This document shows positions 2,823 through 38,498 of a DNA stretch of 45,850 bases, piece by piece; the first letter of the stretch is position 1, and every line of letters begins with the position of its first letter. A model generated the notes under the pieces. The model saw only the letters and a program-made list of their open reading frames with translations. It was not told the origin of the DNA and did not search any database. A program made the position numbers and the translations under genes. Origin of the DNA: Candidatus Levybacteria bacterium RIFCSPHIGHO2_02_FULL_40_18 (GTDB lineage Bacteria > Patescibacteriota > Microgenomatia > Levybacterales > GWA1-39-11); NCBI GenBank assembly GCA_001782235.1, contig MFOC01000003.1, positions 1 through 45,850 on the forward strand. Direction: 5' to 3'.

Positions 2823-3626
2823 ATGGTAAGTTTGGACATGAGATTTTTTTCTGCGATTTCTTTCGCCCTAATACTTCTTTTGGCTTTTTACAGCCCGGCT
2901 CTGGCTCAAGAAACAGAAGTCTTGACTGGTACGGGTGTTGCAATTTCGCTTCCGATTGTTGATGAGAATATAAAAGATGGAAGTATAATTGCCTCAACTG
3001 ACTCAGGCTATAAAAAATCATCTTACGCTTATCAACCTTCGCTTTATGGAGTAATGACAAACACTCCCGCGCTGTTTCTTGAGAATGGAGATCCTCCCCC
3101 CAAAGACACATATCATCCGGTTATAACAACAGGCAAGGCGTACGTTTTAGTCTCGACAATAAATGGGTCGATTAAAAAAAATGATTTCATAACCTCATCG
3201 GAAACTCCGGGAGTCGGCCAAAAATCAAGCGCAAGCGGTTATGTTTTGGGGACTGCTCTTGAAGACTACACATCCTCCGATACTCGATCTGAGGGAAGGA
3301 TCTTGGCTTACATAAATCCCCATTTCAACGCTACGTTTATTGCCACGAGAGCCAATCTTCTTGAAAGCTTAAGAAATATTGCGGCCTCCCCCACCCTTGC
3401 GCCACTGACTACCTTTCGCTATATCATTGCGGCACTCATTGCGACAGCCTCATTCATACTTGGTTTTATACATTTTGGAAGAATAATAAGAACAGGCATT
3501 GAAGCATTGGGAAGAAACCCCCTTGCCTCGGTCTTTATTCAGGCCAGCATGCTTTTAAATGTTGCTTTAACTATTGGGGTAGTACTTGGAGGTATTGCCA
3601 TATCGTACTTGGTACTAGTCCTATGA
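2823..3626 (+). CDS. Secreted-domain protein with a C-terminal ATP synthase c-subunit-like TM hairpin that lacks the conserved carboxylate
   Basis: ORF track gives 2793-3626, but the 2793 ATG sits in the predicted -10 box, so ATG 2823 (or 2838) is preferred. Signal/TM segment FFSAISFALILLLAFYSPALA-QE is followed by a ~170-aa soluble domain. Then RTGIEALGRNPLASVFIQASMLLNVALTIGVVLGGIAISYLVL aligns by eye with F-type c subunits (Bacillus PS3 [36 protein letters not shown]). The R-N/Q-P loop, Q, M and VAL are all in register, but Thr-Ile replaces Val-Glu. Confidence 0.75.
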   Translation: MVSLDMRFFSAISFALILLLAFYSPALAQETEVLTGTGVAISLPIVDENIKDGSIIASTDSGYKKSSYAYQPSLYGVMTNTPALFLENGDPPPKDTYHPVITTGKAYVLVSTINGSIKKNDFITSSETPGVGQKSSASGYVLGTALEDYTSSDTRSEGRILAYINPHFNATFIATRANLLESLRNIAASPTLAPLTTFRYIIAALIATASFILGFIHFGRIIRTGIEALGRNPLASVFIQASMLLNVALTIGVVLGGIAISYLVLVL

Positions 3627-4060
3627 GAACTCAAAGCTCAAATCGCAAAACTCAAAATGAATCAAGAAGCATGAATCAAGAAGCAAGGAAAATAAGAAAT
3701 TTTACAGATTTGAACGCATGGAAAGAGGCTCATAGGCTGGTTTTATTTATCTATCGAATAACAAAGGACTTCCCTCGTGAAGAACTATTCGGACTAGTAA
3801 ATCAATTAAGACGTGCGGTTATTTCGATAACATCTAATATCGCTGAAGGATTTAGTAGGAGTTCTTATAAGGAGAAGTCTCAATTTTATTCGATGGCATT
3901 AGGCTCGCTAACTGAAGTTCAGAATCAGCTTATTGTATCAAGAGACTTAGGATACATAACAAAAAAGGATTTTGAAGAATTGGAAGATATAACTATTACA
4001 GTAAGCAAATTGCTTAATGGTCTTATTAAAAAATCTAAAACCATGATTCATAATTCATGA
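3623..4060 (+). CDS. Four-helix-bundle protein (23S rRNA intervening-sequence protein family)
   Basis: NFTDLNAWKEAHRLVL...ITSNIAEGFSRSSYKEKSQFYSMALGSLTEVQNQL is the family signature (PF05635/TIGR02436 type). In-frame ATG 3671 is an equally plausible start. Start and stop both lie inside the flanking inverted-repeat arms. Confidence 0.85.
   Translation: MRTQSSNRKTQNESRSMNQEARKIRNFTDLNAWKEAHRLVLFIYRITKDFPREELFGLVNQLRRAVISITSNIAEGFSRSSYKEKSQFYSMALGSLTEVQNQLIVSRDLGYITKKDFEELEDITITVSKLLNGLIKKSKTMIHNS
3637..3688. repeat. Left composite arm of the inverted repeat enclosing the four-helix-bundle gene
   Basis: CTCAAATCGCAAAACTC (3637-3653) is the reverse complement of 4075-4091 with 1 mismatch in 17. 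GAATCAAGAAGCATGAATCAAGAAGCAAGG (3659-3688) pairs with 4041-4070 at 24 of 30 positions (hand alignment). Confidence 0.7.
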
Positions 4061-4091
4061 TTCATGATTCTAACGAGTTTTGAGATTTGAG
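4041..4091. repeat. Right composite arm of the inverted repeat enclosing the four-helix-bundle gene
   Basis: CCATGATTCATAATTCATGATTCATGATTC (4041-4070), then TAAC, then GAGTTTTGAGATTTGAG (4075-4091). These are complementary to 3659-3688 and 3637-3653. Confidence 0.7.
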
Positions 4092-4131
4092 ATGTAGATT
4101 TGACATTTGATTTTTGACATTTGAGATAAAT

Positions 4132-4797
4132 ATGTCCGAAATATTTTTATATTATGCTCTTCTAACATCTGTTTTCCTCCTGTCAGGAGTTTTAATAGTT
4201 GTGATTCAATATCTTTTTAATGTTTTAAAAAAGAATAAGCTGTATCAAAAAGATGCGGTTCGTCACAGTCAAGAAATCATTTCACACGCAAATGAAAAAG
4301 CTAAACAGATAATATCTGAGGCGCAAGTTTTTTCAGACGAGGTCCGGCAAGGGAGTGATAAACTCATAGCAAGCCTTAAAGAATCTCAAAGAGAGGAACT
4401 TAAGAAGGCCGCAGACAGGCTTTTTGAAGAATATAAAGCTGCGCTGGAAGAAGTTTATAAAGAGAATATCAATATATTTAGAAATATATCAAAAGATATC
4501 GAAGAAAAGGCAGGTTTTGAAATTCGTGACTTTAAAGAGATTTTGGAAAAAGAAACAATCGAGTCCCAAAAGATTGTTGGTGAAAAAATAGAAACTGAAT
4601 ATCATGATGTACAAAAGGAGATTCAGGAGTACAAAAACCGCGAGCTTTTGAAGGTTCAGGAAAGCATTTATGGGATTGTACATAATGCCATTGAACTTGC
4701 AATCGGTAAATCGCTGGATCGACAAACCCAGGAGGAACTGGTAATGGAAGCTTTGAAAGAAGCCATCGAAAAACAAGAAACGTCAGAATCTAAATGA
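4132..4797 (+). CDS. atpF: F0F1 ATP synthase subunit b
   Basis: One N-terminal TM helix (IFLYYALLTSVFLLSGVLIVVI) followed by a long charged coiled coil. It sits immediately upstream of atpH-atpA. The ORF-track start at 4114 is a TTG inside the repeat arm, so ATG 4132 is preferred. Confidence 0.75.
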   Translation: MSEIFLYYALLTSVFLLSGVLIVVIQYLFNVLKKNKLYQKDAVRHSQEIISHANEKAKQIISEAQVFSDEVRQGSDKLIASLKESQREELKKAADRLFEEYKAALEEVYKENINIFRNISKDIEEKAGFEIRDFKEILEKETIESQKIVGEKIETEYHDVQKEIQEYKNRELLKVQESIYGIVHNAIELAIGKSLDRQTQEELVMEALKEAIEKQETSESK

Positions 4798-4926
4798 GAA
4801 TGGTTATTTGAAAATGGAAATTAGTAATGGAAGGAAGGAAATAGAAAATAGCTAAATAACACGAATTTCCAATATCTAATTTCTATTACCATTTTCTAAT
4901 TTCTTATAACCAATTTCTAAATATTA
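4798..4926. repeat. Low-complexity hairpin element (GGAAATT/AAAATGG word family) filling the atpF-atpH spacer
   Basis: Left half TTATTTGAAAATGGAAATTAGTAATGGAAGGAAGGAAATAGAAAATAG closely matches the reverse complement of 33745-33797. Right half CTAATTTCTATTACCATTTTCTAATTTCTTATAACCAATTTC is an imperfect complement. Related copies lie at 24056-24135, 32570-32697 and 33657-33800. Confidence 0.65.
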
Positions 4927-5382: not shown

Positions 5383-6863
5383 ATAATTTTGAAGACTATT
5401 TAAAAGAAATAGGAGAAATAGGATATGTTGAAGAGGTGGTTGGACCGATTGCTCAAGTGAGCGGTTTGCCGGGCGCAAAATGTGAAGAACTCGTGATGTT
5501 TGAAAGCGGGGAAATAGGTCAGGTCCTTTCTTTGTCCGAAGACTTTGTCGAAGTTCTAATATTTTCAAGAAACCCTATAAAGGTAGGCGTTAGGGCCGTC
5601 CGACTCAACAAGCCTTTTGAGATGCCGGTAGGACATGAATTGCTTGGGCAGATTATAGATCCTTTTGCACGGCCCTTTGACGAGACAAGGCCGGTAAAAA
5701 CCCCAAAAGACAGAAGAAATATTCTCGTTAAGGCCGCAGGAATCGACAAGCGAAGAACAATTAAAAGGCATTTAGTGACAGGTGTGACACTCGTTGACTT
5801 ATTAATACCAATCGGCTTTGGACAAAGAGAGCTTTTGATTGGAGACAGAAAAACCGGTAAGACAAATTTCCTCTTGGCCACAATTTTATCGCAGGCAAAA
5901 AGAGGAACTATCTGTATTTATGCTGTTATTGGCAAAAGAAAGATTGATATTAAAAAAATTGAAGACCTTTTTGTAAAGAATAAGGTCATGGATAACATTA
6001 TTATGATTGCAACAACATCTTTTGATCCGCAAGGATTAATCTATTTAACACCCTACTCCGCTATAACAATTGCGGAATATTTTCGAGACGCGGGAATAGA
6101 TACAATTTTAGTCATTGATGATCTATCAAATCATGCGAGGTTTTACAGAGAAATTTCACTTCTCGGCCGCCGTTTTCCGGGAAGAAATTCTTACCCTGCA
6201 GATATCTTTCACACACACGCACGGTTTATGGAAAGAGCCGGAAATTTTATAGTCGGCGACAAGGAGGTATCAATTACTGTGCTCCCGATAGTTGAAACAA
6301 ACCAGGGAGATCTCTCAGGCTACATTCAAACCAATCTCATGTCAATGACCGACGGCCACCTTTATTTTGATCAAGGCCTCTTTTCCCAAGGGATTCGCCC
6401 CGCGATTAATCCCTTCATATCGGTGACTCGTGTTGGTCAGCAAACCCAATCGTCTCTCCAGCGAAGCATTGCACGAGAGCTAAGATCTTTCCTTGTCTTG
6501 TATCAAAAAACAAAGCGATTTGTCCACTTTGGTGAAGAGATTAGCCAATCAATAAAGACAATTCTCGCAACGGGGGATAATCTTACCCGCTTCTTTCACC
6601 AACCTCCTTCAAGCATTACCTCAGAAAACATACAGATTTTTCTCTTTGCTTTGCTTTGGTCAAATTTCTTTGGAGATGAACCGTTTGAAAAAATAAAGCA
6701 GGATATGGATAAATGGAGAGTAATGTATGAGGAAAATAAAGCTTTTCACGATAACATAGATAATATGATTGCAACATCATCCCATTTAAATGAGCTGCTC
6801 TTGAAAATCAAGGGAATCCAAACCAAAAACAATCCAGACCAGAAGATCGTCTTAACAAGCTGA
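5379..6863 (+). CDS. atpA: F0F1 ATP synthase subunit alpha
   Basis: Walker A GDRKTGKT, then ICIYAVIGKR, LPIVETNQGDLSGYIQTNLMSMTDGHLYF and RPAINPFISVTRVG. Confidence 0.95.
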   Translation: MNNFEDYLKEIGEIGYVEEVVGPIAQVSGLPGAKCEELVMFESGEIGQVLSLSEDFVEVLIFSRNPIKVGVRAVRLNKPFEMPVGHELLGQIIDPFARPFDETRPVKTPKDRRNILVKAAGIDKRRTIKRHLVTGVTLVDLLIPIGFGQRELLIGDRKTGKTNFLLATILSQAKRGTICIYAVIGKRKIDIKKIEDLFVKNKVMDNIIMIATTSFDPQGLIYLTPYSAITIAEYFRDAGIDTILVIDDLSNHARFYREISLLGRRFPGRNSYPADIFHTHARFMERAGNFIVGDKEVSITVLPIVETNQGDLSGYIQTNLMSMTDGHLYFDQGLFSQGIRPAINPFISVTRVGQQTQSSLQRSIARELRSFLVLYQKTKRFVHFGEEISQSIKTILATGDNLTRFFHQPPSSITSENIQIFLFALLWSNFFGDEPFEKIKQDMDKWRVMYEENKAFHDNIDNMIATSSHLNELLLKIKGIQTKNNPDQKIVLTS

Positions 6864-6926
6864 ATCAAGAAGCAAGAATCAAGAAGCAGGGGGGAACCAT
6901 GATTCATGATTCAAGATTCATGATTC
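6862..6926. repeat. Cargo-less hairpin with the same arms as the four-helix-bundle cassette
   Basis: GAATCAAGAAGCAAGAATCAAGAAGCAGG (6862-6890), loop GGGGAA, then CCATGATTCATGATTCAAGATTCATGATTC (6897-6926). About 23 of 30 positions are complementary. The left arm is almost identical to 3659-3688 and to the reverse complement of 36639-36668. Confidence 0.75.
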
Positions 6927-6933
6927 AAAACAT

Positions 6934-7788
6934 ATGGTTACTAAAAAATCTATAGAATCCGAGATCGAATCATTGACTAACATGAAGGGCATTGCCGAAT
7001 CTTTTGAGGAGATTGCCGCACTACGAATCAGAAGAAACCGGGACCAAGTTTTAAAAAACAGGCAGTTTACGACAGAAGTAAATGAAATCTTTCAACAGGT
7101 AAAAATTGCATCCGTCAATATAATTGATCCAAAACAGAAATCTTTTCTCAAAAAAAACGGGAGAACTCTATTTGTATATCTTTCGGCCAACACAGGACTC
7201 TATGGAGATATTGTCAGGAGAACTTTTAATCTATTCGCAAAATATGTAGGACAATGGGCGGATAATGTTCTCATAATCGGAAAGGTTGGGCTTAAACTTG
7301 CCTCTGAACGCAAAATAATAAAGCCAGTTGCTTATTTTGATCTTCCGGACGATACAATTGATACACAAAGTATAAAAAAGATATCTTCTTATCTATTAGA
7401 CTTTGAGAGGGTTATTGTATTTTATGCCAAATTTGAGGGAATTTTACATCAAGAAGAAACAATGATTGATTTATCAGGCAATCCTTCCCTCCCTTCCTTT
7501 ACTCCGCCTCAAGCACCTCAATTTAAAATTAAATACTTTTTTGAACCGGAGGTAACTAAGATTTTGGCATTCTTTGAAACAGAGATTTTCGAAAGCTTAC
7601 TTGAACAGACAGTCAGGGAATTTCAACTTGCCAAGCTTTCATCACGAGTAGTTGGATTAAATAGTGCTATTGATCATATAGAAAATGAGCTTAAAAAAAC
7701 CACCAGTAAAAGGAATGAGTTCTTACATCAAGAATCAAACAGAAAGCAGTTACAAACCTTTTCATCAATGTCCCTATGGGACATATGA
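6934..7788 (+). CDS. atpG: F0F1 ATP synthase subunit gamma
   Basis: Size, operon position between alpha and beta, and N- and C-terminal helical segments (IAALRIRRNRDQV..., ...EFQLAKLSSRVVGLNSAIDHIENEL). The sequence is divergent. Confidence 0.8.
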   Translation: MVTKKSIESEIESLTNMKGIAESFEEIAALRIRRNRDQVLKNRQFTTEVNEIFQQVKIASVNIIDPKQKSFLKKNGRTLFVYLSANTGLYGDIVRRTFNLFAKYVGQWADNVLIIGKVGLKLASERKIIKPVAYFDLPDDTIDTQSIKKISSYLLDFERVIVFYAKFEGILHQEETMIDLSGNPSLPSFTPPQAPQFKIKYFFEPEVTKILAFFETEIFESLLEQTVREFQLAKLSSRVVGLNSAIDHIENELKKTTSKRNEFLHQESNRKQLQTFSSMSLWDI

Positions 7789-7800
7789 TTTACGCAGATT

Positions 7801-9764
<1,964 letters not shown>

Positions 9765-24055: not shown

Positions 24056-24135
24056 CTATTGGAAATTGGTTATTAGATATTAGATAATGGTTTTACTAAT
24101 TTCCATTTTCCAATAACCATTTTCTTGCAATAACC
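24056..24135. repeat. Hairpin element of the GGAAATTGG word family, upstream of the PEGA gene
   Basis: CTATTGGAAATTGGTTATTAGATATTAGATAATGG, then TTTTA, then CTAATTTCCATTTTCCAATAACCATTTTCTTGCAATAACC. The arms are imperfectly complementary and use the same words as 4798-4926, 32570-32697 and 33657-33800. Confidence 0.6.
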
Positions 24136-26435: not shown

Positions 26436-26448
26436 CCACTTAGGTTCT

Positions 26449-26571
26449 AAGGAACTTTCCCAAACTCGCATAAAAGCTGTGTGAGAACTGGCTATTGGCT
26501 TTTGGCGCTTTGCTTCTGGCTTATGCTAACAGCTAAAGGCTAAATGCTAACAGCTATTTGGGATCGCACCT
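26449..26571 (+). promoter_or_regulatory. Conserved 123-nt 5' leader, copy A (candidate structured cis-regulatory RNA)
   Basis: Matches 38376-38498 at 122 of 123 positions by hand alignment (G/A difference in CTTTTG[G/A]CGC). Possible CCCAAA...TTTGGG closing helix, CTCGCA/TGTGAG hairpin, and a long GU-containing pairing of GGCTATTGGCTTTTGGC with GCTAAATGCTAACAGCT. Confidence 0.6.
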
Positions 26572-26627
26572 TATCAACTGACACGGACATCTACTCGGAA
26601 AGCCTATATTCAAAAAAGGAGGTTGTT

Positions 26628-32551: not shown

Positions 32552-32569
32552 AGTCTAACTTGTGTTCTA

Positions 32570-32697
32570 GAAAATAGTTGTAGGAAATTGGACAATGGTT
32601 ATAGAAATAGGATATTGAAAATAAGTATTTAAAAGCTATTTTCTATTTTCAATTTTCCATTACTAATTTCTATTTTCTAATAACCAATTTCTTGTTT
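32570..32697. repeat. Hairpin element (GGAAATTGG word family) separating the two comEC ORFs
   Basis: Left arm GGAAATTGGACAATGGTTATAGAAATAGGATATTGAAAATAAG. Right arm CTATTTTCTATTTTCAATTTTCCATTACTAATTTCTATTTTCTAATAACCAATTTC. The upstream ORF's last codons and stop (..KKLVIRK*) lie inside the right arm. Confidence 0.65.
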
Positions 32698-33656
32698 AAC
32701 CATAATATTCCTGCTAACAGTATCAAATAATATCCTGCGATAATGGCCCAAGGGACATTGTTTACCTCGATCGATGTAACTTTCGAAGCAAAAAAATCAA
32801 CCACTACCTGAAAATACGAAAGAAGTGGAAAAGAAAGATAAATAAAGGGAGACGCCAAAGATTTTGAGATAAAACTTGCAGCTGCGCTTATTCCTCCTAG
32901 AACCATTAAGGGCGGGACTGTCCAAAGAACCAAAAAATTGACAATTATCGAAATTGGAGAATAAGTTCCAAAAAAGAATAACAGAATTGGAGTTGTTGCG
33001 ATTTGGGCCGAGATTGTTGTTCGAAAATCCTCGAAAAAATAATGCTTGAACAATCCTCTTTTTAAAATGGGGTCCAATAAAATAATCCCAAGAGTTGCCG
33101 AAAAGGATAAAATAAAGCTGATTGAGCTTAAAACCCGAGGTTCCCAGAAAATCATGGCAAAAGCGGCGAAAGAAAGAGCAAGAAGCGATGTATTTTGACG
33201 GCCTATCAACCCTGCACTAAGTGCAAATAATGCCATAATCGCGGCTCGAATAATTGAGGGCTGGAAATCTGCCAAGGCGACATAGAATAGAACTATAACT
33301 GAAGTTACAATGAGCGCGTACTGGCGTCTTAAGAAGACTACCAAAGTTCCTAGCAGAAAAGAAGTCAGCATGCTAACGTTCATGCCAGACGCCGCCACGA
33401 CATGAAGGACTCCGGTCTGAATGAACTTCTCTTTTGAGGTCTTCGTGAGATTCTCACCAAAAACTACCCCTATTAATAAATCTGCATCTTTCGGGTTCAA
33501 TACTGAGCGATAAATTTCTTTAATATGACTTTTTATATCTTGAACAACAGCTATGTTAGTTGTATTGGTCGTTTTTATCGTTTTATTCTCGAATGAATAG
33601 AAAAGCACTACGCGGACAAGAAAAACGAGTGAAAGAATGATGATAAACCTAAGCAT
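32670..33656 (-). CDS. comEC: ComEC/Rec2 membrane channel (Competence domain) portion
   Basis: LIGVVFGENLTKTSKEKFIQTGVLHVVAASGMNVSMLTSFLL plus many TM helices. Confidence 0.85.
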   Translation of the reverse strand: MLRFIIILSLVFLVRVVLFYSFENKTIKTTNTTNIAVVQDIKSHIKEIYRSVLNPKDADLLIGVVFGENLTKTSKEKFIQTGVLHVVAASGMNVSMLTSFLLGTLVVFLRRQYALIVTSVIVLFYVALADFQPSIIRAAIMALFALSAGLIGRQNTSLLALSFAAFAMIFWEPRVLSSISFILSFSATLGIILLDPILKRGLFKHYFFEDFRTTISAQIATTPILLFFFGTYSPISIIVNFLVLWTVPPLMVLGGISAAASFISKSLASPFIYLSFPLLSYFQVVVDFFASKVTSIEVNNVPWAIIAGYYLILLAGILWLNKKLVIRK

Positions 33657-33800
33657 GGGAAATTGGTTGTTAGAAATTAGAAAATGGTTATAGAAATTAG
33701 ATACTAGAAATTGGGGTTATTTATTATTATTTAACTATTTTCTATTTTCCACACTCCATTACTAATTTCCATTTTCAAATAACTATTTTCAAATACTCTA
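33657..33800. repeat. Hairpin element (GGAAATTGG word family) between comEA and comEC
   Basis: Left arm GGAAATTGGTTGTTAGAAATTAGAAAATGGTTATAGAAATTAGATACTAGAAATTGG. Right arm CTATTTTCTATTTTCCACACTCCATTACTAATTTCCATTTTCAAATAACTATTTTC. Confidence 0.65.
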
Positions 33801-35584: not shown

Positions 35585-38317
35585 TCAAATAACAAAATTT
35601 ATAATGCGGCCGGGGATGTAAATGACGTTTTTCACGGATTTTCCTGCAACGTATTTTTCGACTTCTTTTCGCGCGAGAGATTCGACCTCATTCTTTTTTC
35701 CAATGTTCGAACTATCAATCGTGACTTCTCCTCGTCTTTTTCCATTCACCTGAACCACAACGGTAACTTTTTCTTGGACTAAATATTTTTCATCATATTT
35801 TGGCCACTCACTAAAGTGAATGGAATCACGAATCATGAATTTTGAATCATGGTTAATTTCCCCTTGATTCTTGCTTCTTGCTTCATGCTTCATTTCTTGC
35901 CATACCTCCTCCGCCAAATGTGGCGCGAACGGTGCGAAAAGCCTGAGATATGATCTCGCGGTTTGCTGCGACCATGATTTATTGTTGTCCGAAATGAAGT
36001 TGTAAAATTCCATTAGCCTTGCTATTGCCGTATTATAAGAGAATTCTTCAATGTCAAGCGTTACTTTTTTAATGGTCTTATTTATCATTTGAAGTGTATC
36101 TTGATTGTCCTCCCCGAACTCTTTTGTGGTAAACAAGTTCCAAACCCTGCGCACGAAACGGTGCATTCCTTCGATTCCGGTATCGCGAAAATCTCCACCT
36201 TGAGAAAATGGGCCAAGAAACATAAGATAAAGCCTTAAAGTATCGGCTCCGAATTTTTCAATGTAAATGTCAGGAACAACTATGTTGCCACGCGACTTGC
36301 TCATTTTGGCACCCTCTGAGATAATAAGTCCGTGCGCAAAAAAGCGTGGGAAAGGCTCGGCGAAAGGCAAAGCTAGATCATGGATCTTAGATCTTAGATT
36401 TTGGATATTGATTTTCGATCTATTATCTATGATCGATAATCTATCATCTAAATTTAGATCATGCAATACCATCGCTATAAAACGAACATATAAAAGATGT
36501 AGCACCGAATGCTCTGCTCCGCCAATGTAAATTGCTATGGGACACCACCGCCTTACGATCTTCAGATCGTAAGGAATGTCCAATTTCAAATTTCCAATTT
36601 CCAATGGTTGATCCGATTTGATGTCTTTAGAACTAGTTCCTTGCTTCTTGATTCTTGCTTCTTGATTCTGAATGCTCAAATAGCGCAGGTAGTACCAGGA
36701 TGAGTCTAAGAAGGTATCGGAAACATCCGTTTCACGTTTTGCAGAACTATTACAGGATGGGCACTTTGTTTGGTAGAACTCCGGATGGTTTGCTAAAGGA
36801 GACGTTCCTGTTCCTTCCGGCCGCCAATCTTTTACGTCAGGGAGCTCGACCGGCAACTGTTCTTCCGGTACTGCTCGAATCATATGTTCCCTCCCGTCAA
36901 TTATTGCGTAATCCCTGCCTTCGATCAGTTTTGAATTTTGAGTTTTGAGTTTTGAGTTTCCCCAGCATTTACGACAGTAAATGATGGGAATCGGCGGGCC
37001 CCAATATCTTTGGCGTGAAATCAACCAATCCCGCAGATGATAAGTTGTTTCTGGTCCTCCGGCTCTGTACCTCTCAAGCCACTGGGCTATTTTCTTCTTT
37101 GCTTCGGCCGAACTCAAACCTGAAAACTCACCTGAATCAAATAAAACCCCGTCCCCGGTGAAACACTCCTCAAGACTATCGATTCGCTTATCTTTTTTTT
37201 TGTCTCCTGTATGCAACGTAGGCTTAAGTCGAATACCATACTTTTTGGCAAATTCAGTATCGCGCTCGTCATGCGCATCTCCAAACAAAGCACCTGTACC
37301 GTAGCCCATTACCGCGTAATCTGCGATCCAAATAGGAATTTTCTCTTTGTTAACCGGGTTTATACCATATAGACCGGAAAATACGCCAGTTTTTTCTTTG
37401 TTCTCGATCCTCTCCTTATCCGATTTCTTTTTCGCCTTTTCAATATATTGCTGGACAAACTTATCTCTGATTGACGTTGAAATCGGGTGCTCAGGAGCAA
37501 GCACTAAAAAGGTGGCGCCGAACAAAGTATCTGCTCGTGTAGTAAACACCTCTATCTCCTTAATTTTTAACTTTGAATTTTGAACTTTGAACTTGATTCG
37601 GGAACCCTCTGATTTTCCTATCCACTGGCGCTGGGCAATCTTTATCTTTTCCGGCCAATCAATCTGGTTCAAACCATTAAGAAGTGCATCAGCATATGCG
37701 GTAATTTTAAAGAACCATTGTTCGAGGTCGCGCTTCTCGACAACTGACGAACAACGCTCGCAGCGCCCGTCGATTACTTGTTCATCCGCTAAAACGGTTT
37801 TATCCGAAGGGCACCAATTGACCCGGGCTTTTTTGCGGTAAGCCAACCCTTTTTTAAACATTTGTACAAATATCCACTGTGTCCATCTATAATAATCCGG
37901 ATCATAAGTCTCTAAAGTCCTTGTCCAGTCATAAGCGTTTCCGGTTGCCCGAAGCTGTCTATAAAAATTCTTTTCTGAAATTTTGGCCTGCTCTCTCGGG
38001 TGGCGGCCAACCGCAAGCGCATAGTTCTCAGAATGTATGCCAAACCCGTCAAGTCCGATCGGCTCAAAAACATCCTTACCCTTCATTCTCATGTAGCGAC
38101 CGTGAATATCTGCTCCTGTAAAAGCATACATATTCCCTACATGTAGGCCCTCTGCCGAAGGATATGGAAACATCATTAGTGTGTAGTAGGGATTTTTAGC
38201 ATTTTTAAGATCAGGCGAAAAAGTTTTATTTTCCTCCCAATATTTCTGCCATTTGACCTCAATCTCTTGCGGTTTATACTGCGCCTTCCTATTCATAGCA
38301 CAATTATACCTAATCAT
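35585..38317 (-). CDS. leuS: Leucyl-tRNA synthetase with several low-complexity in-frame insertions
   Basis: PYPSAEGLHVGN (HIGH region), KMSKS, WCPSDKTVLADEQV, VFTTRADTLFGATF, RDWLISRQRYWGPPIP. The likely true start is MNRKAQYKPQEIEVKWQKYW, with its ATG at complement 38294-38296. Confidence 0.95.
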   Translation of the reverse strand: MIRYNCAMNRKAQYKPQEIEVKWQKYWEENKTFSPDLKNAKNPYYTLMMFPYPSAEGLHVGNMYAFTGADIHGRYMRMKGKDVFEPIGLDGFGIHSENYALAVGRHPREQAKISEKNFYRQLRATGNAYDWTRTLETYDPDYYRWTQWIFVQMFKKGLAYRKKARVNWCPSDKTVLADEQVIDGRCERCSSVVEKRDLEQWFFKITAYADALLNGLNQIDWPEKIKIAQRQWIGKSEGSRIKFKVQNSKLKIKEIEVFTTRADTLFGATFLVLAPEHPISTSIRDKFVQQYIEKAKKKSDKERIENKEKTGVFSGLYGINPVNKEKIPIWIADYAVMGYGTGALFGDAHDERDTEFAKKYGIRLKPTLHTGDKKKDKRIDSLEECFTGDGVLFDSGEFSGLSSAEAKKKIAQWLERYRAGGPETTYHLRDWLISRQRYWGPPIPIIYCRKCWGNSKLKTQNSKLIEGRDYAIIDGREHMIRAVPEEQLPVELPDVKDWRPEGTGTSPLANHPEFYQTKCPSCNSSAKRETDVSDTFLDSSWYYLRYLSIQNQEARIKKQGTSSKDIKSDQPLEIGNLKLDIPYDLKIVRRWCPIAIYIGGAEHSVLHLLYVRFIAMVLHDLNLDDRLSIIDNRSKINIQNLRSKIHDLALPFAEPFPRFFAHGLIISEGAKMSKSRGNIVVPDIYIEKFGADTLRLYLMFLGPFSQGGDFRDTGIEGMHRFVRRVWNLFTTKEFGEDNQDTLQMINKTIKKVTLDIEEFSYNTAIARLMEFYNFISDNNKSWSQQTARSYLRLFAPFAPHLAEEVWQEMKHEARSKNQGEINHDSKFMIRDSIHFSEWPKYDEKYLVQEKVTVVVQVNGKRRGEVTIDSSNIGKKNEVESLARKEVEKYVAGKSVKNVIYIPGRIINFVI

Positions 38318-38361: not shown

Positions 38362-38375
38362 CAGGTCAAGTTCAG

Positions 38376-38498
38376 AAGGAACTTTCCCAAACTCGCATAA
38401 AAGCTGTGTGAGAACTGGCTATTGGCTTTTGACGCTTTGCTTCTGGCTTATGCTAACAGCTAAAGGCTAAATGCTAACAGCTATTTGGGATCGCACCT
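38376..38498 (+). promoter_or_regulatory. Conserved 123-nt 5' leader, copy B
   Basis: 122 of 123 positions identical to 26449-26571. The internal ATG (ATGCTAACAGC...) hits a stop after 8 codons here, so the leader is non-coding. Confidence 0.6.

Follow-up and report, generated by a model that had tools for sequence, protein, structure and literature searches.

A four-helix-bundle gene within a heptamer-repeat stem: a probable insertion cassette, organized like an rRNA intervening sequence, in an ATP synthase operon of Candidatus Levybacteria

The DNA analyzed here, referred to as the window, is the 45,850-nucleotide stretch formed by positions 1 to 45,850 of the forward strand of contig MFOC01000003.1 (assembly GCA_001782235.1) from Candidatus Levybacteria bacterium RIFCSPHIGHO2_02_FULL_40_18. 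Between two genes of its F-type ATPase operon lies a segment, at ∼3630-4127, in which an open reading frame (ORF) for a four-helix-bundle protein is enclosed by inverted arms composed of tandem heptamers. The segment is probably a selfish insertion cassette of the intervening sequence (IVS) type residing in a protein-coding operon, a reading to which a probability of roughly 0.72 is assigned. Comparison of loci demonstrates that gene and arms move as a unit among unrelated operon junctions of many Patescibacteria genomes, nearly always in the sense orientation of the host genes.

Results

The cassette and its position in the ATP synthase operon

The gene order of the operon is a gene for a c-like protein (2823-3626), the cassette, atpF (ATG at 4132), atpH, atpA, atpG, a GxxExxY gene (7801-8241), and atpD. 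The cassette (∼3630-4127) takes up the whole interval from the stop of the c-like gene at 3626 to the atpF start codon, its paired region beginning 3 nt past the upstream stop and finishing 6 nt before the atpF ATG. Its parts, with the basis for each assignment, are as follows.

3623..3626, + strand: ATGA stop/start overlap in which TGA is the stop of the c-like gene and ATG opens a 145-aa extension of the cassette ORF (empty site of relative L104; ORF list)
3628..3657, + strand: outer left arm, (AACTCAA/CTCAAAN)n heptamer array (period 7 by Tandem Repeats Finder, TRF; pairs with 4075-4125)
3657..3688, + strand: inner left arm, (GAATCAA GAAGCAT)2, holding the probable start codon ATG 3671 (inverted-repeat search, TRF)
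3671..4060, + strand: cargo gene for a 129-aa four-helix-bundle protein, 23S_rRNA_IVP / TIGR02436 (Pfam, NCBIfam, structure 2gsc, homologues, substitution rates)
4041..4070, + strand: inner right arm, (CATGATT/CATAATT)n array, holding the stop codon 4058-4060 (inverted-repeat search, TRF)
4075..4127, + strand: outer right arm, (GAGTTTT/GACATTT)n, ending 4 nt before the atpF ATG (TRF period 7, 7.7 copies; pairing)

Positions 3659-3688 of the inner left arm pair with 4041-4070 over 30 nt (24/30, 80%), and positions 3637-3653 of the outer left arm pair with 4075-4091 over 17 nt (16/17, 94%). All of the arms are tandem heptamer arrays. The inner pair has the inverted form (GAATNAN)n / (NTNATTC)n, with heptamers GAATCAA/GAAGCAT opposite CATGATT/CATAATT, and is nested inside an outer (CTCAAAN)n/(NTTTGAG)n hairpin in which CTCAAAN stands opposite GAGTTTT/GACATTT. 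Folding of 3620-4135 closes the long-range stem in both the minimum free energy and the centroid structure, with z = -3.3 and none of 100 shuffled sequences folding as well. Heptamer tracts are abundant beyond the cassette: the whole window contains 23 period-7 tracts (676 nt) versus ∼0 in shuffles, no other period is comparably enriched except the multiple 14 (17 tracts), and the arm motif GAATCAAGAAGCA occurs 19 times at ≤2 mismatches versus 2.1 expected (0/100 shuffles), including occurrences at 6862-6927 and, within leuS, at 35823-35891 and 36642-36668.

The cassette protein matches PF05635 / 23S_rRNA_IVP (Pfam, 3.6e-38) and TIGR02436, "four helix bundle protein" (NCBIfam, 1.1e-35), in both cases above the curated cut-off, and its sequence also matches the solved four-helix-bundle structure with PDB id 2gsc (2e-21), which is described as a homopentamer (Lin et al., 2006; PMC4990558). 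The entry in the ORF list runs from 3623 to 4060 and begins at ATG 3623, an in-frame extension through the left arm that yields 145 aa. ATG 3671 is the probable true start, because most of the nearest relatives among 7289 homologues have 129 aa and an N terminus reading MNQE.... Nonsynonymous and synonymous divergence of the coding sequence (pN 0.20 versus pS 0.80, the latter saturated) show that the protein is under purifying selection. A paralogue search found no other PF05635 or GxxExxY gene in the window, a phage collection contained no homologue of the cassette protein, and the PADLOC defence models matched neither of the two cargo proteins (PF05635 and GxxExxY).

An earlier note on this DNA had claimed a four-helix-bundle gene of the IVS type, with its probable start and its stop inside composite inverted repeats. 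The family assignment agrees with both profile matches, ATG 3671 and the stop at 4058-4060 do lie within the inner arms, recomputed pairing returns the same arm coordinates with the same 24/30 and 16/17 matches, and the long-range stem expected of the segment is present in its predicted fold. The extent given for the element requires correction: the arms are where the note placed them, but the element itself is longer, from ∼3628/3630 to 4125/4127.

The best promoter-like site (11/12), at 2768-2797, precedes the operon; over the scanned region as a whole, promoter-like matches do not exceed those in shuffles, and no terminator-like site is listed in the cassette. Rfam models identify only tRNAs, and no rRNA, in the window and in 20 related loci. 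The same genome, with the same arrangement, recurs in many aquifer-type metagenomes.

Recurrence of gene and arms, and covariation of the arms

A metagenome scan with the 129-aa protein returned 551 relatives, from which 80 loci with 58-85% identity were read. In Patescibacteria metagenomes, the cassette gene together with its arms is found in operon contexts that are unrelated to one another and number more than 60. At nearly all of these loci a (GAATNAN)n array overlaps the ATG and a (NTNATTC)n array overlaps the stop codon; the family consensus, GAAT.A.GAATTATGAAT.A. ... ATaATTCATaATTC.TaATTC, also written GAAT.A.GAATTATG ... ATaATTC, has both the ATG and the stop in heptamer register. Both neighbours are co-oriented with the cassette gene at 57 of 62 loci (92%), as compared with ∼40% of the window's genes having both neighbours on their own strand. 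Stem boundaries were taken from strict local alignment, RNAduplex on wide windows having over-extended the stems into flanking genes. By this measure the median arm is 28 nt long, the median distance from the upstream stop to the outermost paired base is 4 nt, and that from the outermost paired base to the downstream ATG is 7 nt.

The arms covary, staying complementary as they change. Duplexes between the two arms of one locus have an energy of -33.0 kcal/mol versus -27.6 kcal/mol for arms combined across loci (p = 3e-6) and -16.9 kcal/mol for shuffled arms. When 39 loci are aligned in fixed register, 70.8% of cells are paired, versus 30-43% when the partner is slid by 1-3 columns, and in these same loci double-sided changes number 68 against 44 expected (0/500 shuffles). 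Switches of the whole arm core also occur, for example from GAATTAT/ATAATTC to GTATTAT/ATAATAC.

Orthologous operons with and without the cassette

A contig scan with AtpA gave a single relative, and orthologous atp operons were reached through homologues of the c-like protein. Four relatives are informative.

L104 (c-like protein 68% identity): no inserts; genes overlap or abut, the c-like gene meets atpF in ATGA, and atpD starts within the end of atpG
L106 (c-like protein 59% identity): atp operon essentially empty
L001 (c-like protein 62%, AtpA 73% identity): between the c-like gene and atpF, a different PF05635 gene flanked by (TTCAAAA)n/(TTTTGAC)n arms of its own
L105 (c-like protein 65% identity): a PF05635 cassette between atpH and atpA, with composite arms, outer (GTCAAAA)n and inner (TCGAAAT)n

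The empty site in L104 reads ...TTATGACTGAA, the stop of the c-like gene overlapping the start of atpF. Judged by this site, the ATGA at 3623-3626 of the window is retained from the uninterrupted operon, atpF having been given a second ATG. The PF05635 gene of L001 (Pfam 7e-26) occupies the same junction as the cassette of the window and has no BLASTP similarity to its protein. Between atpG and atpD, where the window has its GxxExxY gene, L001 has an empty heptamer hairpin with the (TTCAAAA)n/(TTTTGAC)n arms of its own cassette, and the genes of L104 overlap. Three solo hairpins of ∼105 nt, with a mean column identity of 89%, occupy three other junctions in L105. The sequence ATG(A) is duplicated at the PF05635 cassette, and CTATGGnACA, the ancestral overlap, is present on both sides of the GxxExxY cassette, a pattern consistent with target duplication. 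Cassettes with inner arms of their own are repeatedly enclosed by an outer (NTCAAAA)n hairpin, which suggests insertion into the loops of pre-existing hairpins.

The comparison of orthologous operons thus reveals polymorphism in both the presence and the position of the element. Together with the more than 60 contexts, the covarying arms, and the heptamers of the Coxiella IVS discussed below, this upholds the view of the earlier note that the segment is an insertion element with optional cargo and not an ordinary gene.

L001 is sequence CAYIRD010000006.1, titled 'uncultured Gammaproteobacteria'; its gene order and protein similarities fit an operon of the Patescibacteria/Microgenomates type, and it is probably mislabelled.

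Cargo-less hairpins and a second cassette in the operon

Most of the non-overlapping junctions of the window's atp operon hold a hairpin or a cassette. In addition to the cassette described above, these are as follows.

4800..4925, + strand: cargo-less hairpin of a second repeat family (GAAAATGGAAATTAG.../...CTAATTTCCATTTTC) in the gap between atpF and atpH (repeat search; intergenic fold z = -3.4)
6862..6927, + strand: cargo-less hairpin with the inner arms of the cassette, overlapping the atpA stop and ending 6 nt before the atpG ATG (6934)
7775..8256, + strand: second cassette, a GxxExxY / PDDEXK_3 gene at 7801-8241 within a long-range stem (Pfam 4.3e-35, TIGR04256 2.8e-36, fold z = -4.0)

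The arms of the hairpin at 6862-6927 are identical to the cassette ends at 29/31 and 32/35 positions, including non-repeat bases at the loop border, and the hairpin folds with z = -3.65. An empty hairpin with the cassette's arm sequences, which the earlier note had reported at 6862-6926, is therefore present, extended by one nucleotide. This hairpin and a second solo copy at 35823-35893 have arms ∼93% identical to the cassette ends. The orientation of solo hairpins relative to genes was discarded as evidence because a hairpin reads alike on both strands. The GAAAATGGAAATTAG/CTAATTTCCATTTTC family also occurs at 24058-24130, 32560-32700, and 33657-33800 of the window and, in L105, between atpA and atpG. 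In the GxxExxY cassette, the atpG stop (7786-7788) and the atpD ATG (8247) are located in opposite strands of the stem.

Copies inside leuS

The leuS gene (35585-38317, minus strand) contains five in-frame heptamer tracts, and three of the five fall in gaps or between aligned segments relative to Thermus thermophilus LeuS. The following are relevant here.

35823..35893, - strand: cargo-less copy of the cassette hairpin, in frame, encoding KHEARSKNQGEINHDSKFM (arms 29/34 and 30/32 identical to the cassette ends)
36376..36450, - strand: heptamer hairpin of another sequence type, (GATCTTA)n, in frame (period-7 tract; homologue alignment)
36575..36669, - strand: in-frame insert in which the cassette left arm (identical at 31/32 positions) precedes a (GGAAATT)n array (an insertion when compared with 1h3n, located between its residues 516 and 519)

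The KHEARSKNQGEINHDSKFM peptide corresponds to a gap in the alignment with T. thermophilus LeuS, in a region that is variable among homologues, and the 26-aa insert DDRLSIIDNRSKINIQNLRSKIHDLA (36376-36450) is found in none of nine aligned homologues from the clade, being unique to this genome. Other LeuS homologues have peptides of the IKNQESRI type, the translation of (GAATCAA)n, at differing positions. The leuS copies are specific to the lineage, and hairpins of this kind insert into, and are tolerated in, the essential coding sequence leuS. The recurrence of the arm sequences within leuS claimed in the earlier note is reproduced at 35823-35891 and 36642-36668 with ≤2 mismatches. The 30-mer quoted there as the arm does recur, but it is the leuS version (36640-36669, reverse strand), from which the left arm of the cassette differs by one base.

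LeuS proteins of the clade range from 626 to 1344 aa and have inserts rich in K/N/Q/S/E/R/I (homologues P0241-P0390), and inserts of low complexity in housekeeping proteins of the candidate phyla radiation (CPR) appear to arise generally from heptamer hairpins.

Related arrangements in other phyla

PF05635 genes are located between inverted heptamer arrays on a Nostoc punctiforme plasmid, (AGGAGTC)n/(GACTCCT)n, and on a Riemerella plasmid, (GGTTCAA)n/(CCTTGAA)n, and a GxxExxY gene of Bacteroides finegoldii has (CAGAGGA)n/(CCTCTGT)n arms. In Pseudanabaena a PF05635 gene between cas6 and cas4 is flanked by direct arrays, (AAAGCTA)14 and (AAAGCCA)10, the units of which are also present in the window. 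This locus (L101) is on the Pseudanabaena galeata plasmid NZ_CP112875.1, at 46268-46627. Such hitch-hiking of PF05635 beside cas genes may explain the appearance of '23S rRNA IVP' among CRISPR-linked proteins in a clustering study (PMC10910872). The GxxExxY gene of a Fusobacteria bacterium ZRK30 plasmid (L110) is bordered by a 22-nt direct repeat, CAGATTTAATCCGTGTACCTAT, and is without inverted heptamer arms, a boundary of another type in this cargo family.

Other features of the window

The c-like protein encoded at 2823-3626 has 267 aa and no Pfam match; its C terminus alone resembles the ATP synthase c subunit (EALGRNPLA hairpin), and no acidic residue is seen in its second helix. A gene for the a subunit is not visible in the atp operon of the window or of any of the relatives (L001, L104-L107). 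Directly 5' of the promoter-like site at 2768-2797 are 2.7 copies of a 22-nt direct repeat, TGTCCA-N8-GGGTAAGTT (2708-2763), which is conserved in L001 (252-299) and is operator-like in appearance. A 125-nt element occurs twice in the window, at 26448-26572 and 38363-38487 (119/120 identical), each copy preceded by TGGTATAAT, an extended -10-like motif. It folds at -48.5 kcal/mol (z = -6.2) with a stem of (TGGCTTT)n/(GCTAAAG)n heptamers, has no Rfam match, and is a candidate small RNA or leader.

Discussion

Proposed behaviour of the cassette and points that weigh against it

In the favoured explanation, the cassette would be transcribed as part of the atp mRNA, and its arms would pair into an interrupted stem of ∼50 bp; with the ORF in the loop, the host stop and start codons would come to lie within ∼10 nt. 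Expression of the operon, by translational coupling and/or through the stability of its segments, would in this way survive the insertion. RNase III is likely to act on the stem, if the rRNA IVSs of Coxiella, Leptospira, and Salmonella are a guide. No transposase is encoded in cis in the cassette. Spread would probably make use of hairpin loops or heptamer arrays that are already present: the element might insert into a loop, in the way that an IVS takes the place of an rRNA tetraloop, or similar arrays might recombine. That the element exists in order to segment the atp mRNA through RNase III, as the earlier note had also considered, is weakened, because L104 runs its operon with overlapping genes and no hairpins and because copies are tolerated within leuS.

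Several points count against this explanation. Co-transcription, the stem in vivo, and cleavage by RNase III are all inferred. Mismatches in the arms display no excess of G:U over A:C (61 versus 82); they therefore do not demonstrate that selection on complementarity acts on the sense RNA as opposed to DNA, and the asymmetry test for selection at the RNA level is best regarded as uninformative rather than negative. The stems are rich in A and U, and two of the seven positions of the heptamer are often mismatched. The tolerated in-frame copies in leuS cannot be obligatory cleavage sites and argue against obligatory RNA cleavage at every copy. The apparent target duplications could equally reflect selection that keeps both host reading frames intact. 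Two of the six retrieval patterns used to collect the loci are terminal peptides encoded by the arms, which may enrich for loci having arms. Finally, no mobility enzyme was identified, and the window contains no Y1_Tnp homologue.

Alternative explanations

The lack of a wobble bias and the in-frame leuS copies leave a DNA-level mechanism open. In this tentative alternative, clearly less probable than an IVS-type cassette, the arms would matter as a cruciform or single-stranded DNA hairpin read by a trans-acting enzyme, for instance a Y1 transposase of the IS200/IS605 type, also known as a repetitive extragenic palindrome (REP)-associated tyrosine transposase (RAYT), or the PD-(D/E)XK protein GxxExxY acting as a homing nuclease, and any RNA stem would be incidental. 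In-frame insertion of the kind seen in leuS is a property of Rickettsia palindromic elements (RPEs), near-identical solo copies are present within one operon in L105, and a cargo with a nuclease fold, GxxExxY, occupies the same kind of site. Genes for IS200-like Y1 transposases are located directly 3' of atpC in L001 (7835-8547) and L105 (12450-13192), but these Y1_Tnp genes are bordered by GGGGTTCAACCCC palindromes, in the manner of REP/RAYT systems, instead of by heptamer arms. On this ground, and since the window is without Y1_Tnp, a REP/RAYT system proper was set aside, and the Y1 transposase as mobilizer is kept as a weak rival. The DNA-level account is also at odds with the four-helix-bundle cargo, which has no known catalytic activity, and with the 92% sense co-orientation and exact placement between stop and start codons, which point to constraints at the level of the transcript.

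A purely regulatory role beneficial to the host is unlikely, because orthologous operons are empty. Here the hairpins would be intercistronic mRNA elements, similar to the short tandemly repeated repetitive (STRR) hairpins of cyanobacteria, that set stability, processing, or coupling for the stoichiometry of ATP synthase, with the enclosed gene being a regulated host gene. The occupation of most non-overlapping atp junctions in the window fits such a role, as do stems that would bring stop and start codons together, and transcript stability or translational coupling has been suggested for the 7-bp STRR hairpins between hupS and hupL (PMC2670836). However, the operons of L104 and, for the most part, L106 have overlapping genes and no hairpins, the junctions and sequences of hairpins and cargo differ between relatives, the cassette is also present in pilin, cas, and many other operons, and copies are found within coding sequence.

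Growth of the repeats in place, by slippage from seeds, with the inverted layout a by-product of conserved N- and C-terminal coding and with nothing moving, is highly improbable. Heptanucleotide repeats are indeed the commonest long simple-sequence repeats in many prokaryotes, with slippage proposed as their cause (summarized in PMC4679880), heptamer copy number is variable among Coxiella strains (PMC4990558), and heptamer sequence differs between relatives at the same site. Against this, the arms reach beyond the ORF on both sides and covary, the gene and arms occur together in more than 60 unrelated contexts, the PF05635 genes at the same junction in the window and L001 are non-homologous, and the ∼93% match of solo hairpins to the cassette ends extends to non-repeat bases at the loop border. 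The notion that the cassette gene is Avd, the accessory gene of diversity-generating retroelements, was rejected: the weak similarity, 25.7 bits to PF22296 and 23 bits to NF033474, lies under the curated cut-offs (40 and 80 bits, respectively), and the window and those related loci for which gene lists were read showed neither a reverse transcriptase nor a pair of template and variable repeats.

Relation to known systems

The closest likeness is to the ORF-bearing 23S rRNA IVSs of Coxiella burnetii and Leptospira, with which the cassette has in common the protein family (S23p / 23S_rRNA_IVP), an ORF in the loop of a stem made by terminal inverted repeats, sense orientation in the host transcript, sporadic occurrence among relatives, and the replacement or extension of a hairpin loop. 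The Coxiella IVS has a 28-bp terminal stem within which RNase III cleaves, and tandem GACAGAT heptamers of strain-variable copy number just before the S23p start, and IVSs replace rRNA tetraloops (PMC4990558); the cassette likewise has tandem heptamers in its 5' part, just ahead of the start codon. ORFs of the 23S_rRNA_IVP family also occur in insertions in CPR 16S and 23S rRNA (PMC11270868). The cassette differs in its host, a polycistronic atp mRNA, and in its site, which is not the loop of a 23S or 16S rRNA helix but the interval between the stop and start codons of the c-like gene and atpF. Its ORF is under purifying selection, unlike that of Coxiella, which is decaying and probably untranslated, and the long heptamer arrays that form its arms on either side are enclosed by a second hairpin. 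The rRNA IVSs are excised by RNase III without re-ligation; excision of the cassette is proposed by analogy. Being outside rRNA, the cassette strictly does not belong to the rRNA IVS class, but it shares every other testable IVS feature.

Like the cyanobacterial STRR hairpins, the cassette places 7-nt tandem units as hairpins between genes that are (here presumably) co-transcribed, and AAAGCCA/AAAGCTA arrays are present in the window as well as flanking PF05635 genes in Pseudanabaena and Calothrix. In contrast to STRR hairpins, which are cyanobacterial, have no cargo, and have no link to PF05635 or GxxExxY, the elements here are in Patescibacteria, have optional cargo, and also enter coding sequence. 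RPEs and MITEs (miniature inverted-repeat transposable elements) are similarly short, multi-copy, palindromic, and non-autonomous derivatives of a larger unit. The dispersed non-coding inverted-repeat copies related to the larger element (∼93% in the window, 89% in L105) conform to this description, and RPEs share the tolerance of in-frame insertion into an essential protein gene such as leuS, a likeness of organization. Unlike RPEs and MITEs, the arms are variable tandem heptamers with no fixed consensus, and no cognate transposase is known. Integron gene cassettes resemble the element in being promoter-less single ORFs, co-directional, transcribed from the host, and bounded by imperfect inverted repeats that fold; they differ in that the element has no integrase and no attI/attC organization, inverted arrays flank its ORF on both sides, and insertions are dispersed at operon junctions instead of forming one array. 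Literature searches found no publication linking heptamer repeats to PF05635/GxxExxY cassettes outside rRNA or in mRNA operons.

A broader and speculative proposal, for which the odds are considerably lower than for the cassette itself, is that heptamer hairpins with or without cargo, ORF-bearing rRNA IVSs, and STRR hairpins constitute one pan-bacterial class of mobile elements targeting hairpin loops. The pentameric four-helix-bundle protein and, in parallel, the GxxExxY protein might recognize the heptamer stem and either promote its copying into hairpins that are empty or regulate how the stem is cleaved. A period of seven might then be a functional requirement, by which arms can pair in any register and each of the three frames is supplied with start and stop codons, rather than a by-product of slippage.

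Significance

The origin and mobility of rRNA IVSs and the function of their conserved ORF have been standing questions since the early 1990s, and the meaning of cyanobacterial STRR sequences has been one for equally long. The locus described here connects two orphan gene families with rRNA IVSs and with heptamer-repeat hairpins. It and its relatives show that an IVS architecture can exist apart from rRNA: a unit consisting of a gene in a heptamer stem colonizes the stop/start junctions of ordinary Patescibacteria operons, has cargo-less derivatives, and nests in other hairpins, and similar arms flank the family in Cyanobacteria and Bacteroidota. Hundreds of natural pairs of insertion and empty site are available for working out target rules, as is a conserved, apparently functional version of the protein with which binding to its own stem can be tested. 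The finding may account for spurious "CRISPR-associated" or operon-associated calls for the PF05635 family, and it appears to explain the low-complexity, K/N/Q/S-rich inserts in CPR housekeeping proteins.

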